A stretch of DNA of 19,701 nt from Thermoplasmata archaeon (GCA_034667685.1 JAXDQU010000084.1:1-19701), one strand, 5' to 3'; shown: positions 5,590-17,062, numbered from the stretch's first letter. Numbers and translations are program-made. Notes: a model not told the origin generated them from the letters alone.

Positions 5590-6231
5590 ATGGATGGCAC
5601 GCAGCAACTGAAGACCGGGACCACCACGGTCGGACTCGTCACCAAGGACGGGGTCGTCATGGGCGCCGACATGCGCGCGACCATGGGCAACCTCATCTCC
5701 CACAAGGAGACCCAGAAGCTCTTCCGCATCGCGCCCCACATGGGCTTCACCATCGCCGGCCTCGTGGGCGACGCGCAGGTGCTTGCCCGTTGGCTGGAGG
5801 CCGAGGTCGAGCTCTACCAGATCAAGCGCGGCAGCGAGATGTCGATCAAGGCGGCGAGCACGCTCCTGGCGAACATCATGAACCAGCGCAAGTTCGCGCC
5901 CTTCTACGTGCAGCTCATCGTGGGCGGCGTGGACCTGGAGGGCTCGCACGTCTACTCGCTCGACAGCGCGGGCGGCAACATCCCCGACAAGTTCGTCACG
6001 ACGGGCTCGGGCAGCGTCTTCGTGTACGGTGTGCTCGAAGACCACTACCGCGACGACCTCTCGCAGGACGAGGGGATCGACCTCGCCATCCGCGGCATCA
6101 CCGCGGCCATGAAGCGCGACAGCGCGTCGGGCGACGGCATGAACATCGCGAGCATCACGCGCAAGGACGGCTACGTCCACCTCACGAAGGACGAAGTCGA
6201 GAAGCGCAAGAAGAAGATGGGGCTGAAGTAA
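5590..6231 (+). CDS. psmB: 20S proteasome beta subunit (copy 1)
   Basis: Short propeptide ending LKTG|TTTVG; Thr1, Asp17, Lys33; [14 protein letters not shown] and RDSASGDG motifs. Confidence 0.95.
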
Positions 6232-6232
6232 C

Positions 6233-6880
6233 ATGGACGGCGACCAGCAGAAGCTCCTCAAGACCGGCACCACGACCGTGGGCATCGTCACGAAGGAGGG
6301 CGTCGTCATGGGCGCCGACCAGCGCGCGACCATGGGCCACCTGATCGCGCACAAGGACACGCAGAAGCTCTTCCGCATCGACAACCACCTGGCGATGACC
6401 ATCGCGGGCGGCGTGGGCGACGCGCAGGTGCTCGTGCGCTGGCTGACCTCGGAGGTCAGCATCTACAAGCTCAAGCGCGGCACGGAGATGAGCGTGCGCG
6501 CGGCCAGCACCCTGCTGGCGAACATCATGAACCAGAACAAGTTCACGCCCTTCTACGTGCAGCTCCTCGTGGGCGGCGTGGACCTGGAGGGCTCGCACAT
6601 CTACAGCATCGACGCGGCGGGCGGCTCCATCCCCGACAAGTTCGTCACGACGGGCTCGGGCAGCGTCTTCGTGTACGGCGTGCTCGAAGACCACTACAAG
6701 GACGACCTGACCCTCGACGAGGGCGTCGACCTGGCCGTGCGCGGCATCACCGCCGCCATGAAGCGCGACAGCGCGTCGGGCGACGGCATGAACGTCTGCA
6801 CGATCACGCGCAAGGACGGCTACAAGCAGGTCAGCAAGGAAGACGTCGAGAAACGCAAGAAGAAGCTCGGGCTGCGCTGA
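6233..6880 (+). CDS. psmB: 20S proteasome beta subunit (copy 2)
   Basis: Same motifs as copy 1 ([10 protein letters not shown]17, K33, [13 protein letters not shown]); IAGGVGDAQ; starts 1 bp after the copy 1 stop. Confidence 0.95.
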
Positions 6881-6886
6881 TCTTCC

Positions 6887-8800
6887 ATGGGCGTCGAAGA
6901 CGTACTCCGCGAGATCCGCGACGAGGTCAAGAAGGAGGTCCCCTCCTCCATCGAGGTCACGGACATCGAGTTCGAGGCCGCGGTCCTCGTCATCTACACG
7001 AAGCACCCCGAGAAGTTCGCGGAGGACGAGGACCTCGTGCGCCGGCTCGCCAAGAAGCTGCGCAAGCGCGTCGTCGTCCGACCGGACCCCAGCGTGCTGG
7101 CGAAGATCGAGGAGGCCGACAAGAAGGTGCGCGACCTCGTGCCCGCGGAGGCCGAGATCACGGAGCTGTACTTCGAGCCCGACATCGGCGAGGTCATCAT
7201 CGAGGCGCGCAAGCCCGGCCTCGTCATCGGCCGCCACGGCACCACGCTGAACGACATCAAGAAGGCCATCGGCTGGGCGCCGAAGGTCATCCGCACGCCG
7301 CCCATCCCGTCGAAGACGGTGAAGGACCTTCGTGAATACCTGCGCAGCGTGGCGGACGAGCGCAAGGACATCCTGCACCGCGTCGGCCGGCGCATCTACC
7401 GCGGCGGCGTCAAGGAGGAGCAGTGGGTCCGCTGGACTTCGCTCGGAGGCTACCGCGAGGTGGGCCGCTCGTGCCACCTGCTCCAGACGCAGGACACCAA
7501 GATCCTCATCGACTGCGGCGTCAACTTCAGCAACGACGACAAGGCCTCGCCCTACCTTCACCTCGGTGAAGTTTGGCCGCTCACGCAGCTCGACGCCGTG
7601 ATCCTCACGCACGCGCACATGGACCACTGCGGCCTGATCCCGCTGCTCTACAAGTACGGCTACGACGGGCCCGTGTACTGCACGCCGCCCACGCGGGATC
7701 TGTCCGTCTTGATGCAGCTCGATTACATCAAGATCGCCGCGGCGGAAGGCAAGAAGCCGCCCTACGAGTCGGACCACGTGCGCGAGTGGGTCAAGCATTG
7801 CGTGACGCTGGAGTTCGGCGACACGACGGACATCGCGCCCGACGTCAAGCTCACGTTCAGCAACAGCGGCCACATCCTGGGCTCGGCCGTCTCGCACTTC
7901 CACATCGGCGACGGCTTCTACAACGTGTGCTGCACGTCGGACATGAAGTACGAGCGCACGTGGCTGTTCAACCCGACGAACAACAAGTTCCCGCGTCTCG
8001 AGACGCTCATCATCGAGGCGACGTACGGGGGCCGGAACGACTTCCAGCCCACGCGCCAGCAGGCCACGGACCAGATGAAGGAGATCTGCCAGCGCGTGCT
8101 CACGCGCGGCGGCAAGGTCATCGTCCCCTCCTTCGCCGTGGGCCGCAGCCAGGAGATCATGCTCGTGATGGAGGAGCTCATCCGCAACGGCGACTGCCCG
8201 CGCGTGCCAGTCTACCTCGACGGCATGATCTGGGAGGCCACCGCCATCCACACGGCCTACCCGGAATACCTGAACAACGAGCTTCGGAACGAGATCTTCC
8301 ACGAGGGCTCGAACCCGCTCCTCAGTGACATCTTCATCCGCGTCGACTCGTTCGAGATGCGCCGCAAGGTCGTGGACAGCGACGAGCCGTGCGTCGTCGT
8401 CACCACGAGCGGCATGATGAGCGGCGGCCCGGTCATGGAATATTTCCGCAACTGGGCCGCGGACCGGCGCAACGCGCTCGTCTTCGTCGGCTTCCAGGCC
8501 GGCGGCACGCTCGGACGCCGCATCCAGCAGGGCTGGCGCGAGATCCCCATGGCCGGCCAGGGCGGCCGGAGCAACGTCGTCAAGATCGAGATGGACGTCG
8601 AGACCGTCGACGGCTTCAGCGGCCACTCCGACCGCCGGCAGCTGATGAACTACATCAACAACATCACGCCGAAGCCCGACCGGGTCATCACGATGCACGG
8701 CGAGGAATCGAAGTGCATCGACTTCGCCACGTCGATCCACAAGAAGTACCACATCCACACGGATGCGCCCTACAACTTGGAGACGATTCGCCTGAAGTGA
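6887..8800 (+). CDS. fttA: Archaeal beta-CASP ribonuclease aCPSF1 / transcription termination factor FttA
   Basis: N-terminal KH domains (PGLVIGRHG), metallo-beta-lactamase THAHMDH, beta-CASP FAVGRSQE and GFSGHSD, C-terminal NLETIRL; 637 aa; conserved synteny with psmB. Confidence 0.95.
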   Translation: MGVEDVLREIRDEVKKEVPSSIEVTDIEFEAAVLVIYTKHPEKFAEDEDLVRRLAKKLRKRVVVRPDPSVLAKIEEADKKVRDLVPAEAEITELYFEPDIGEVIIEARKPGLVIGRHGTTLNDIKKAIGWAPKVIRTPPIPSKTVKDLREYLRSVADERKDILHRVGRRIYRGGVKEEQWVRWTSLGGYREVGRSCHLLQTQDTKILIDCGVNFSNDDKASPYLHLGEVWPLTQLDAVILTHAHMDHCGLIPLLYKYGYDGPVYCTPPTRDLSVLMQLDYIKIAAAEGKKPPYESDHVREWVKHCVTLEFGDTTDIAPDVKLTFSNSGHILGSAVSHFHIGDGFYNVCCTSDMKYERTWLFNPTNNKFPRLETLIIEATYGGRNDFQPTRQQATDQMKEICQRVLTRGGKVIVPSFAVGRSQEIMLVMEELIRNGDCPRVPVYLDGMIWEATAIHTAYPEYLNNELRNEIFHEGSNPLLSDIFIRVDSFEMRRKVVDSDEPCVVVTTSGMMSGGPVMEYFRNWAADRRNALVFVGFQAGGTLGRRIQQGWREIPMAGQGGRSNVVKIEMDVETVDGFSGHSDRRQLMNYINNITPKPDRVITMHGEESKCIDFATSIHKKYHIHTDAPYNLETIRLK

Positions 8801-8903
8801 GCGAAGCGAACGAAGGCGAATCGGCGATAAGTTGGAGGGGGGCCGCCGTCTCCGCAGAGCGGCGAGCGCCCTACAACTTGGAGACGATTCGCCTGAAGTG
8901 AGC
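8765..8903 (+). mobile_element. 101-bp self-complementary mini-insert duplicating the aCPSF1 3' end (38-bp perfect direct repeat)
   Basis: gcgccctacaacttggagacgattcgcctgaagtgagc at 8765-8802 and 8866-8903. The insert contains GTGAGCGAAGCGAAC, an imperfect antisense copy of the repeat (8814-8843) and a small hairpin cgccgtctc-cgca-gagcggcg. The repeat is observed; mobility is inferred. Confidence 0.6.
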
Positions 8904-14573: not shown

Positions 14574-15422
14574 CTATTGCCGCCCGACGACCATGATGAC
14601 GCGGCCGCCCTTGAACACGCGGATGGTGCCCGAGGACGACACGACGATGGCGAGCGCCTTGGAGGAGCGCGTGATGCTGGCCGCGGCGATGTGGCGCCCG
14701 CCCAGGCCCGATTGCACCTCGACCGCGCCCTCCGTGTCCACGTAGCGGCCCGCCGCCACGACGCAGCCATCGCCGCGCACGATGAACGCGCCGTCGATCT
14801 GGGCGAACTCCTTGGCCGTCTCCCAGAGGCCCTCGTCGAGGATGTTGCGGTCCTTCTCGGGGTGCCCCTCGAACGGGTTGAGCACGGCGGGGCGCGAGTG
14901 ACGCATGACCGAGTCCGTGTCGCCCACCACGAAGAGCGTGCCCACGGGCTTGCCCTCGCGGCCCTCGCGCGCCAGCTCCACCGCGAGCTTCAGGAGCCGC
15001 TCCACGACGCGCAGGTCCACGCCGTCCTCCAGCTCCTCCTGGAGGTGGACGATCTCGACGTCGCGCTGCACGTCGTAGTGCATCACCATGTCCACGGCGT
15101 CGCCCGCGGCCACCATGACGATGACGGAGTCGTGCGCGGTCAGCTCGCCCGCGAAGAAGGCGCCCAGCAGCACCTCCTTGACCTGCGGGAGGACGTTGAC
15201 GCTGCCCGAGATCGGCTGCGCGAGCTTGAGCGCGTGGCGCATCTTGGGCGCGTAGGTCTCGATCAGCTCCCCGTTGCCCGAGGCGAGGATGACGGGCAGG
15301 CGCATGGCCTCCAGCGTGGCGCGCACGACGTCCGCGCGGTCCGTCACGAGCACGACGAGCGTCGCCTCGAAGCGCTCGCTCAGGCGCTTGGCGGTCTCAA
15401 GGAGCACGCGCGACTTGTCCAC
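14574..15422 (-). CDS. dacZ: Diadenylate cyclase (DisA_N/DAC domain), archaeal DacZ type
   Basis: ELAREGREGKPVGTLFVVGD, EFAQIDGAF (DGA motif) and GLGGRHIAAA (RH motif), with an N-terminal regulatory domain; GTG start. Confidence 0.85.
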   Translation of the reverse strand: MDKSRVLLETAKRLSERFEATLVVLVTDRADVVRATLEAMRLPVILASGNGELIETYAPKMRHALKLAQPISGSVNVLPQVKEVLLGAFFAGELTAHDSVIVMVAAGDAVDMVMHYDVQRDVEIVHLQEELEDGVDLRVVERLLKLAVELAREGREGKPVGTLFVVGDTDSVMRHSRPAVLNPFEGHPEKDRNILDEGLWETAKEFAQIDGAFIVRGDGCVVAAGRYVDTEGAVEVQSGLGGRHIAAASITRSSKALAIVVSSSGTIRVFKGGRVIMVVGRQ

Positions 15423-15472
15423 TGCGTGGCGGAAGGCGCGGACCAGACTTCATGCTTGCGTCGCAGACGTCC

Positions 15473-15528
15473 GGGCTCCGGACTCCGGGCTCAAGGCTCC
15501 GGAGCCCAGAGTCCTGAGTCCGGAGCCC
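15473..15528. repeat. Palindrome built from heptamer repeats (CCGGGCT/CCGGACT-like)
   Basis: gggctccggactccgggctcaaggctcc | ggagcccagagtcctgagtccggagccc: 28-bp arms with 4 mismatches. Confidence 0.85.
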
Positions 15529-15549
15529 CGAGCCCCCGTGAGCGGTCGA

Positions 15550-15696
15550 TCAGCAGTATTTCCGAGGATCCGCGATCATGCCCTCGATGGCGCTCGCGGC
15601 GACGGTGGCGGGGCTCCCGAGATAGACCTCGGCCTGGCTCGATCCCATCCGCCCCTTGAAGTTGCGGTTGCTCGACGAGATGCACCGCTCGCCGGG
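15550..15696 (-). pseudogene. Displaced second copy of the leuC 3' end ([48 protein letters not shown])
   Basis: 46 codons encode exactly the same residues as the leuC C-terminus at a 250-bp offset; 20 of them are synonymously different. Confidence 0.85.
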
Positions 15697-15951
15697 CGCG
15701 ACACGGCCGAATCCGCCCGTGGGCGGAAACGCTCGCTTCGCTCGCTTTCGGCCTGTCGCGGCGGGAGAACGCTCGCCCGTCATCGGATGGTGGGCATCAA
15801 CTCACGTATTTTCTGGGGTCCGCGATCATGCCCTCGATGGCGCTCGCGGCGACGGTGGCGGGCGAGCCGAGGTAGACTTCAGCTTGGCTCGACCCCATAC
15901 GGCCTTTGAAGTTCCGATTCGATGACGAGATGCAGCGTTCTCCCGCCGCGA
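15697..15951 (-). mobile_element. 250-bp structured insert that supplies a recoded leuC 3' end
   Basis: 5-bp core TCGCG at both ends (15697-15701, 15947-15951); internal antisense to the recoded gene segment; GCGAGCGAAGCGAGC at 15731-15745 (- strand); hairpin at 15712-15727. Mobility is inferred. Confidence 0.65.
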
Positions 15952-17062
15952 GGATGCCGCCGGCCGCGCCCATGCACGGGCCGCAGCCGGGCGTGCCGAC
16001 GACCGCGCCGGCCTCCATGAGCGCCTGGAGCGTGCCGTCGTTCATCGCCTCGATCATCTGCGTCTTGCTCGCGGGCGTCACGATGAGGCGCACGTCGGGG
16101 TGGACCTTGTGTCCCTTGAGGATCCTCGCGGCCTCGCGCAGGTCCTCGACGCGGCCGTTGGTGCACGAGCCGAGGAACGCCTGGTCCACGGTCTTGCCCA
16201 CGACGCTCGTCACGGGGTGGACGTTGTCGACCGCGTGCGGGCACGCGACGCGCGGCTCCAGGCGGCTCACGTCGAAGCGGCGCTCGTCGCGGTAGCGCGC
16301 GTGCGGGTCGGCGGTGGCGAGGAAGGGGAGGTCGGTCTTGCCGCGCGCCGCGAGGTAGGCGCGCGTGATCGCATCGGGCGGGACCATCGCGGCCTGCGCG
16401 CCCATCTCGATGCCCATGTTGCAGAGCGTCTGGCGCTCCGGGACGCTGAAGCCCTCGATCGTCGACCCGTAATACTCCACGGCCCCGTAGTCGGCCCCGT
16501 CGGCGCGCACGTCGCGGATGATCTCCAGCGTGACGTCCTTGGCATACACGCCGCGCGGAAGGGCGCCGTCCACCTGGATGCGCATGGTCTCGGGGACGCG
16601 CAGCCACAATTCGCCCGCGGCCCAGACGGCGGCCATCTCGGTGGCGCCCACGCCGTAGCTGTACGCGCCCAGCGCGCCGTAGGTGCAGGTGTGCGAGTCG
16701 GTGCCCACGATGTGCATGCCCGGCAGCACGTGCCCCTTCTCGGGGAGCACCTGGTGGCAGATGCCCTCCTTCATGTCGTAGAAGCTCTCGATGCCCTGGG
16801 CCTTCACGAACTCGCGCACGATCTTCGCCTTGGTGGCCGTCTCGATGTCGGGCGCGGGGCTGCGGTGGTCGAGCGTGACGACCATGCGGCCCGCGTCGAA
16901 GACGGTGCGGACCGGGATGCCGCGGAAGATGGTGCCGATGAGGGCCGCGTTGTCGTGGCTCATCACCAGGTCGACCTTGGCCGTGACGACGTCGCCCGCC
17001 CGCGCGTCGGCCCGACCGCCCGCCCGCGCCAGGATCTTCTCGGCCATCGTGCGCCCAGCCAT
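15797..17062 (-). CDS. leuC: 3-isopropylmalate dehydratase / homoaconitase large subunit (archaeal LeuC/HacA type)
   Basis: [36 protein letters not shown] ([4Fe-4S] Cys) and [11 protein letters not shown]; 421 aa. Substrate specificity cannot be resolved from the sequence by eye. Confidence 0.85.

Follow-up and report, generated by a model that had tools for sequence, protein, structure and literature searches.

A recoded, duplicated gene end around a REP-like hairpin: a candidate gene-end cassette in a LeuC/HacA-family gene of a Thermoplasmata archaeon

The e14 element, which resides in the icd gene of Escherichia coli, encodes its own integrase. According to PMC13626634, the insert carries a replacement gene end and leaves the displaced native end downstream, and excision yields a functional hybrid gene that differs mainly synonymously (Hill et al. 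1989 as cited there). A second type of rearrangement, insertion with long target duplication, is described in PMC2853133 as leaving repeats of tens to hundreds of bases, of variable length and often at gene 3' ends, which are single-copy in insert-free relatives and come with no transposase. The inserts reported there, which carry restriction-modification genes, are several kb long and lie between nearly identical repeats (Nobusato et al. 2000; Furuta, Abe and Kobayashi 2010; PMC2853133). By analogy of layout, e14 in icd is the closest working analogue of the locus presented here. Inverted triplications, of which the tandem inversion duplication of Salmonella is an example, provide a further point of comparison. 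These have a direct-inverted-direct order with small palindromes at both junctions, as set out in PMC4689423.

The window, i.e., the whole stretch of 19,701 nt of Thermoplasmata DNA that was analyzed, contains a large-subunit gene of the LeuC/HacA family whose 3' end is present twice (Table 1). The NCBIfam subfamily models PRK00402, hacA_fam and IPMI_arch scored above cut-off for the 421-aa protein, whereas the NCBIfam equivalog models LEU2 and HacA_Meth scored below it; "LeuC/HacA-family" is therefore the most precise name that the data allow. A paralogous large-subunit gene with 46% protein identity lies at C85:31377-32660, and the genome thus has two enzymes of this family. The DacZ-like gene keeps its place in relatives, and homologous sequence was seen by eye 3' of the ortholog in G002, G004, G005 and G007. 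Together with the archaeal-type RpoN and RadA matches given below, the DacZ match fits an archaeal host. A genome search with a query that took in the hairpin at 15470-15536 gave 66 matches, mostly to that hairpin, which has dozens of near-identical copies, often arranged as head-to-head pairs.

As held by the original prediction, the two gene ends encode the same 46 residues, with 20 of the 46 codons recoded, all 20 synonymously, two TCG/AGC serine switches among the differences and an identical block of 44 nt. The upstream copy (copy A) and the downstream copy (copy B) are identical at 119/146 bases. Given that 21 of 33 codons differ outside the 44-nt tract, the chance of 15 consecutive identical codons is approximately 1e-5. 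A/T-ending codons make up 11-12/48 in copy A, 5/48 in copy B and 8/373 in the rest of the gene (Fisher p = 8e-8), which bears out the earlier count of 11 versus 5 and the view that copy B is the more host-like of the two. Beyond what the original prediction listed, the codon beside the junction is Ala in copy A and Pro in copy B, and the tails that follow ...KY read Val-Ser-stop in the former and Cys-stop in the latter. The 77-aa ORF at 15550-15783 is a by-product of this layout. Several simple accounts could be rejected. The 104 nt 3' of copy A are unrelated to the 104 nt 3' of copy B, which rules out a simple tandem duplication. The differences (G/C, C/G, G/A, C/T and the whole-codon serine switches) run in both directions and are neither adenine-specific nor confined to the adenines of a template copy, on which grounds a diversity-generating retroelement and mutagenesis of that kind were rejected. 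Read-through of the stop codon into copy B was rejected because the start-to-start distance from copy A to copy B is 250 nt, which is not a multiple of 3; spacing is in frame at a MutS-like locus (249 nt) and at rps7 (by eye), and the out-of-frame spacing is hence no general property.

The 104 nt between copies A and B are made up of a linker with a new stop codon, an inverted copy and a REP-like hairpin. A perfect 18-nt inverted repeat (15756-15773 with 15934-15951, 18/18), likewise absent from the original prediction, extends to 33-35 nt if a small gap is allowed, and this perfect part is the side of the inverted copy that adjoins the hairpin. The last bases of the hairpin, ...CCGTG, abut the TCG that opens copy B. 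In the predicted single-stranded DNA fold, the inverted copy is base-paired to the beginning of copy A, and the hairpin forms a separate structure. The motif nested in the hairpin loop, GCGAGCG-A-AGCGAGC (15-17 nt), caps local hairpins elsewhere in the genome, e.g., at C8:40321, C11:62217, C21:90043, C58:4246 and C89:77245, and several of its copies adjoin duplicated tRNA 3' ends or duplicated gene starts. Neither the insert nor any of ten other loci could be placed in an Rfam family, the only matches being tRNAs and chance microRNA-like hits. An archaeal bulge-helix-bulge intron was rejected by eye, as a 2x3 internal loop at the hairpin base, and not a pair of 3-nt bulges 4 bp apart, is where the junctions fall.

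Table 1. Features of the LeuC/HacA-family locus and its surroundings (positions counted from the first base of the window).
Position	Strand	Feature	Remarks
8765..8903	+	Young second event: exact second copy of the final 11 codons and stop of ORF 6887-8800, behind a 63-nt insert	38/38 nt
14574..15422	-	DacZ-like diadenylate cyclase gene	Pfam DAC; NCBIfam DacZ below cut-off
15470..15536		Hairpin of another, abundant repeat family, 3' of the native end	Inverted repeat, 31+31 nt
15550..15701	-	Copy B, putative displaced native end; apparently untranslated	146-nt repeat (15556-15701), Cys codon and stop
15702..15755	-	REP-like hairpin of family F1 (YAGGCCG..CGGCCGTG), with an extra insert in the loop	54 nt
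15730..15746	-	17-nt motif nested in the hairpin loop	About 20 genome occurrences as hairpin cap
15756..15788	-	Imperfect inverted copy of the 35 nt that open copy A	33 nt
15789..15805	-	Linker: two new codons (Val, Ser), stop TGA at 15797-15799, 8 further bases	17 nt
15797..17062	-	LeuC/HacA-family large-subunit gene in its present reading, ending in the putatively cassette-borne copy	421 aa; Pfam Aconitase E = 7.7e-103
15806..15951	-	Copy A, upstream, translated gene end, putatively cassette-borne; head at 15863-15951	146-nt repeat
15819..15862	-	44-nt tract of copy A	Identical to 15569-15612 of copy B

The hairpin belongs to a family (F1) with the consensus CGA-YAGGCCGG..CCGGCCGTG-TCG, which the genome contains 16 times; the DNA folds have energies of -10 to -19 kcal/mol. 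At 8 of these 16 copies the full layout is observed, i.e., a gene end with its stop codon (copy 1), a loop, an inverted copy, the hairpin and a second gene end (copy 2) right after ...CCGTG. All eight junctions are in codon phase x/TC-G, and the repeats are 18-161 nt long. The targets are rps2, rps7, rps10, rpoN and radA, all named by Pfam, a MutS-like gene, called so by its P-loop motif as an ATPase with no family match, one unnamed gene and the LeuC/HacA-family gene. Thus, the earlier notion of a one-off element had to be given up in favor of one of at least eight putative cassettes around the same hairpin at different housekeeping genes. A comparison of 157 codons over these loci found 45 that differ, 44 of them synonymously, against a random expectation of 26% (p = 6e-25). 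At least two of the other eight F1 copies (C124:63702 and C108) show a short or decayed layout by eye. Outside the genome, the exact F1 pattern gave one match in 40 relatives, seven scattered matches in all GTDB species representatives and three JGI contigs, of which only one (L079) was informative.

At the MutS-like gene the two copies are identical at 154/161 positions and share 8 lineage-specific amino-acid states; the tail of copy 2, FQE-stop, resembles the FAE-stop and FSE-stop of relatives, and the GAS-stop of copy 1 is new. The radA copies are identical at 69/71 positions, and no second gene-end copy was seen 3' of radA in the six relatives shown. Another family, F2, of approximately 78 nt, has 12 genome copies (e.g., C81:30209, C111:18979, C41:3895, C68:31501), of which eight are flanked by direct repeats of 25-101 nt, including two copies at tRNA 3' ends and one at a gene 5' end (C58); the differences between the F2-flanking repeats are mostly synonymous. 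The repeat at 8765-8903 in the window is a young event of the same kind as that at the LeuC/HacA-family gene end, and its 63-nt insert contains a GGCGATAAG motif that resembles the F2 end, as well as a hairpin of 10 bp that spans the stop codon. The window also holds a tandem 619-nt repeat at 5608-6874 with 83% identity, which probably represents two paralogous domains or genes.

Comparison with the systems named above showed both likenesses and differences. As in e14 and phage 21 at icd/icdC, the 3' end of the gene is found twice, flanking an insert, and the upstream copy is translated. In contrast to the 15-kb e14, there are 104 non-coding bases here with no adjoining recombinase, one hairpin serves at least eight target genes, and the insert lacks the site-specific recombinase of e14-type elements. 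With insertions with long target duplication the locus shares a direct repeat of more than 30 bp (146 nt), a single copy in seven relatives and in a metagenome contig (X5, below) and the absence of a mobility gene; it differs from them in that the insert is a non-coding hairpin that includes an inverted copy, and the repeats are recoded (82% identical, synonymous differences only). The direct, inverted, direct order is that of inverted triplications (tandem inversion duplication; origin-dependent inverted-repeat amplification), but their models need both palindromes in the parental sequence and work at kb scale, whereas relatives have no hairpin at the in-gene junction and the segments here measure tens of bases. 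Like REPs and REPINs, F1 is a short GC-rich imperfect palindrome in 16 copies, with compensating substitutions in the stem between species. Unlike them, it has no RAYT gene and no GTAG head, its ends reading CGA-YAGG and CCGTG-TCG; REP ends reportedly carry a conserved GTAG or CGTC tag (Di Nocera et al. 2013). In the literature searched, REPs are not known to lie between recoded copies of a gene end.

Candidate classes of mobile element were also considered. The 99%-complete genome gave no match to PF01797 (RAYT/Y1 transposase, tnpA), and for tnpB it gave none to PF01385 and one to PF07282 of only 18.6 bits, below cut-off, on which grounds a hairpin element of the IS200/IS605 type with a TnpB guide RNA was rejected. 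A MITE was rejected because the inverted arms are copies of the target gene that differ by locus, and because the duplication measures 18-161 nt and is not short and fixed. There is no recombinase gene next to the cassette, and five tyrosine recombinase genes (Phage_integrase) lie on other contigs. The literature searches brought up no account of a non-coding hairpin cassette that carries a recoded gene end; the palindromic repeats of M. jannaschii (Suyama, Lathe and Bork 2005) might bear on the matter. The layout is not mentioned in the accessible portion of the review by Delihas (2008).

The ortholog was compared in seven relatives of the same genus or family (G002-G008). All seven have a single gene end, and none has a cassette at this gene. 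In six of the seven, Pro is found at the junction together with GC-ending codons, as in copy B, and Ala was found in none (0/7). A copy A-type end was not found as the own end of any of these relatives, nor was a donor found. The sample of relatives is small, and the evidence on alleles given below comes from contigs, not reads. In a mine metagenome (X5), a 233-nt contig joins 15696 directly to 15947, i.e., the gene body to the head of copy B, with 1 mismatch in 73 nt of the copy B head and 5 in 160 nt of the gene body. The 250-bp-deleted allele with its joint at the TCGCG junction, which the original prediction had put forward, is therefore seen in a relative that is about 97% identical. A 1920-nt contig from a soil metagenome of another study (X2) skips 250 nt with 0 mismatches on both sides; its joint can lie anywhere within the 44-nt tract, and its single gene end is a hybrid of the copy A head and the copy B tail, consistent with the earlier proposal that the two ends are interchangeable. 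Contig joints are thus known both at the 5-nt TCGCG of the junction and in the 44-nt tract. An X3 contig over the copy A head has 6 differences in 89 nt, of which 5 equal the copy B state, compared with 3 in its remaining 391 nt (Fisher p = 0.002); contigs of X3 leave the spacer uncovered, and this cannot be taken to mean that the insert is missing from X3.

The k-mer contigs of X1, the probable source run, are broken within the 44-nt tract. One contig of 266 nt (15583-15848, 0 mismatches) leads from the copy B tract through the hairpin, the inverted copy and the linker to the copy A tract. Since this contig spans the spacer, the tandem layout is not the product of one assembler. The depth of the middle contig was 4.94, compared with 10.1 and 8.67 for its neighbours, and such depths cannot rank the parts of a gene; there are hints that the insert is present in only part of the source population. 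When JGI metagenome contigs were searched for exact matches to the 44-nt tract, none turned up.

The divergence of the two copies was compared codon by codon. Relative to six relatives, copy B differs at 20, 26, 14, 17, 20 and 13 codons and copy A at 23, 27, 17, 19, 22 and 13, respectively. Where amino acids are identical to those of G003, 23/45 codons differ in copy A and 20/45 in copy B, compared with 86/343 in the gene body; in pairs of relatives, the gene-end region diverges at no more than about 1.5 times the rate of the body. Both copies are therefore more diverged than the body, and copy B is nearer to each relative than copy A, or equally near. At the MutS-like gene, 4 of 6 assignable differences fall in copy 2 and 2 in copy 1, and at rps7 of this genome both assignable differences fall in copy 2; all are synonymous. 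The silent copy at the LeuC/HacA-family gene has about 5 changes of its own, also synonymous, an assignment that is weak because of two-codon families, and assigning changes to one copy is weak in general as most codons in the genome have two common spellings. A freely decaying relic should show mostly amino-acid changes, which suggests that both copies worked while they diverged or, alternatively, that exchange keeps the silent copy native-like. Decayed relics were found elsewhere: the stop codon is lost at G002 rps7, and there is a Leu-to-Pro change at G001 rps10. A uniform A/T enrichment of copy 1 was rejected as a rule, given that it holds at the present locus, rpoN, rps10 and L079 but fails at C9 and at rps7 of this genome.

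The same housekeeping genes carry the layout in other species. At rps7 it is present in this genome (G000), in G001 and G002 and on the JGI contig L079, and absent from G003, G004, G005, G006, G007 and G009. The hairpin stems at rps7 differ between species by compensating changes, and the inverted copy matches copy 1 of its own genome; on L079 the match is 13/13. Compared with G003, which has no insert, L079 shows differences at about 1 in 100 aligned columns of the gene body and at 1 of 20 bases between its copy 2 and the native end of G003, whereas 5 of 7 codons of its copy 1 are changed, all synonymously. On L079 the divergence thus sets in abruptly at the junction, which makes copy 2 the native end. 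A second rps10 gene end after a hairpin insert was seen by eye in this genome, G001, G002, G004 and G010, and none was seen by eye in G003, G005, G006 and G009. The two rps10 copies of G002 are identical or nearly identical, i.e., a young event. Several of the rps7 and rps10 comparisons were read by eye from the sequence. The original prediction had supposed a history of targeting the site; this stands for rps7 and rps10 but not for the LeuC/HacA-family gene, where 0/7 relatives have a cassette.

The cassette-borne ends of G000 and G001 differ at 0/20 bases for rps7 and 0/23 for rps10, compared with 27/183 and 19/180, respectively, in the gene DNA ahead of the cassette, i.e., 11-15%. G003, which is the closest relative and has no insert, differs from these ends at 3/20 (rps7) and 4/23 (rps10). 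The cassette ends hence depart from the host tree. Among the relatives, the end of rps10 is a hot spot, with second copies that span from 7 to about 40 of the final codons and lie behind hairpin inserts that differ from one another (L100/G004, L101/G002, L102/G001, L105/G010). By eye, the events in G004 are nested, and copy 1 in G010 has 8 of 13 codons changed toward A/T endings. At G001 rps7 (L083), a 10-nt inverted copy of the last codons of the displaced end lies directly 3' of that end, which suggests an older hairpin event beneath the present one.

On balance, we consider it probable, by a modest measure, that 15702-15951 (250 bp) is a small non-coding gene-end cassette with a history of its own, placed ahead of a displaced native end. 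Such a cassette would consist of a working version of the gene's final 48 codons, ending in two codons and a stop of its own, the inverted partial copy that pairs with it, and the REP-like hairpin. It would have been joined at TCG in codon phase x/TC-G, leaving the gene intact and the native end silent 250 nt downstream. The end borne by the cassette would have evolved apart from the native one as a working gene end, which would account for dense but purely synonymous differences that start sharply at the junction. On the gene side it may have entered by recombination, with a join at TCG that was aligned by the hairpin, and we infer that the cassette was inherited or transferred as a unit between lineages. 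Its separate history is indicated by the identity of the G000 and G001 ends against the host tree and by the sharp junctions. We take the 44-nt tract to record a recent conversion or crossover. Copies A and B can recombine with one another, and a crossover within this tract would remove the hairpin part and leave a hybrid gene; the identity of the tract would make the layout unstable, with X2 as the resulting hybrid.

Copy B is best read as the displaced native end, in keeping with the original prediction, because it abuts native 3' DNA, has the Pro of 6/7 relatives and host-like codons, and forms the joint in X5, and because the L079/G003 pair and the MutS-like tail point the same way. Two observations run counter to this. 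Copy B is itself more diverged from relatives than the gene body (for G003, 20/45 versus 86/343), and the insert-free X2 allele has the copy A head, as does X3 with its spacer uncovered. A copy A head in insert-free alleles of the same species would, taken alone, make copy A native, and it was an A/T-rich end in insert-free relatives that the original prediction had named as the finding to set against its reading. The A/T-rich head is indeed there; X2, however, is the hybrid expected from recombination. The cassette reading as a whole is weakened by the lack of a donor among the relatives, by an exact F1 pattern that hardly occurs beyond this genome, by the absence of a RAYT or above-cut-off TnpB transposase and of an adjoining recombinase, and by the young events.

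The main rival, which we regard as possible but doubtful, is that the hairpin repeat entered the gene end on the spot by an error of replication or repair. A nick at TCG would have been followed by strand-displacement synthesis, a fold-back giving the inverted copy and a template switch giving the hairpin, leaving three identical copies of the gene end. Only old inserts with diverged repeats would then have survived deletion, the translated copy changing only synonymously and the silent copy being kept native-like through recombination with insert-free alleles. Several observations fit: the repeats of young events are identical or nearly so, the MutS-like copies have their 8 lineage-specific states in common, repeat length varies over 18-161 nt, it is invariably copy 1 that the inverted copy matches, the searches turned up no mobilising enzyme, and the 44-nt identical tract accompanies the observed deletion allele. 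The comparison of G000 with G001 tells against it, as 0 of 43 bases of their cassette ends differ while flanking gene DNA differs by 11-15% and the nearer G003 differs from these ends, and so does L079, where copy 1 is changed in 5/7 codons beside a body that differs from G003 at about 1 in 100. Furthermore, a neutral silent copy should hold most of the differences, and these should mostly change amino acids, whereas the changes in the silent copy are also all synonymous (four at the MutS-like gene, two at rps7 and about five here). Nevertheless, the identical or near-identical events at 8765-8903, radA, the MutS-like gene and G002 rps10 indicate that duplication on the spot does occur, and both processes may be at work, i.e., birth on the spot followed by a long life as a unit that moves between lineages. 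An unlikely further reading treats the cassettes as non-autonomous parasites that are guided to gene ends by nucleic acid. In it, the inverted copy would serve as a guide or splint that aligns the 3' end of the hairpin with the target TCG, and host repair enzymes or a nuclease supplied in trans would make the join. The recoded end would spare the essential gene and would avoid pairing or recombining with the displaced end, and spread between species would proceed via the invariant ends of ribosomal, RNA polymerase and RadA genes, by analogy with inteins and homing introns.

The remaining accounts fare less well. That the locus is a one-off scar, in which homology-facilitated illegitimate recombination, with one crossover homologous and the other illegitimate, brought in the gene end and 3' flank of a related lineage with no element involved, would agree with the look of the copies as two working alleles. 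We nonetheless judge it very unlikely, given that 8 of the 16 copies of one hairpin family share the junction to the base, the codon phase and the adjoining inverted copy, that the layout recurs at rps7 in four organisms and at rps10 in five, and that divergence begins exactly at the junction and not at a variable crossover point upstream. If a large integrative element, be it a virus, plasmid or island, had brought a replacement end and then lost its interior, similar to the cis-mobilisable remnants of ICEs or to e14 at icd, it would have left a doubled gene end with a working, mostly synonymously different upstream copy, which is the footprint of e14 at icd/icdC in PMC13626634, and the genome does have its five tyrosine recombinase genes. 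Just 104 nt separate the copies, however, and the hairpin repeats are common to 16 loci with different targets; a single integrase would not serve eight unrelated target sequences, no recombinase gene adjoins and the order of neighbouring genes is as in relatives, all of which makes this origin highly improbable. Lastly, the genome comes from a soil metagenome and the source-run contigs break inside the 44-nt tract, as would be expected if two strain variants of the gene end had been joined in tandem by the assembler. Such a chimera, also considered in the original prediction, is barely credible in view of the spanning 266-nt contig, which an independent k-mer assembly of the source run produced with 0 mismatches, and of the same layout at seven other loci of this genome and in other assemblies (G001, G002 and the JGI contig L079).

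If the favored reading is true, gene-end replacement, which has so far been described for integrase-bearing prophages and islands, also exists in miniature and can do without any gene of its own. This would explain the sharp differences in spelling between close relatives in the last codons of conserved archaeal genes, the apparent orphan gene tails 3' of housekeeping genes, and how small hairpin repeats enter essential genes without killing the host. At such gene ends, gene callers will report spurious small ORFs, e.g., that at 15550-15783, and synonymous-site clocks will be wrong.
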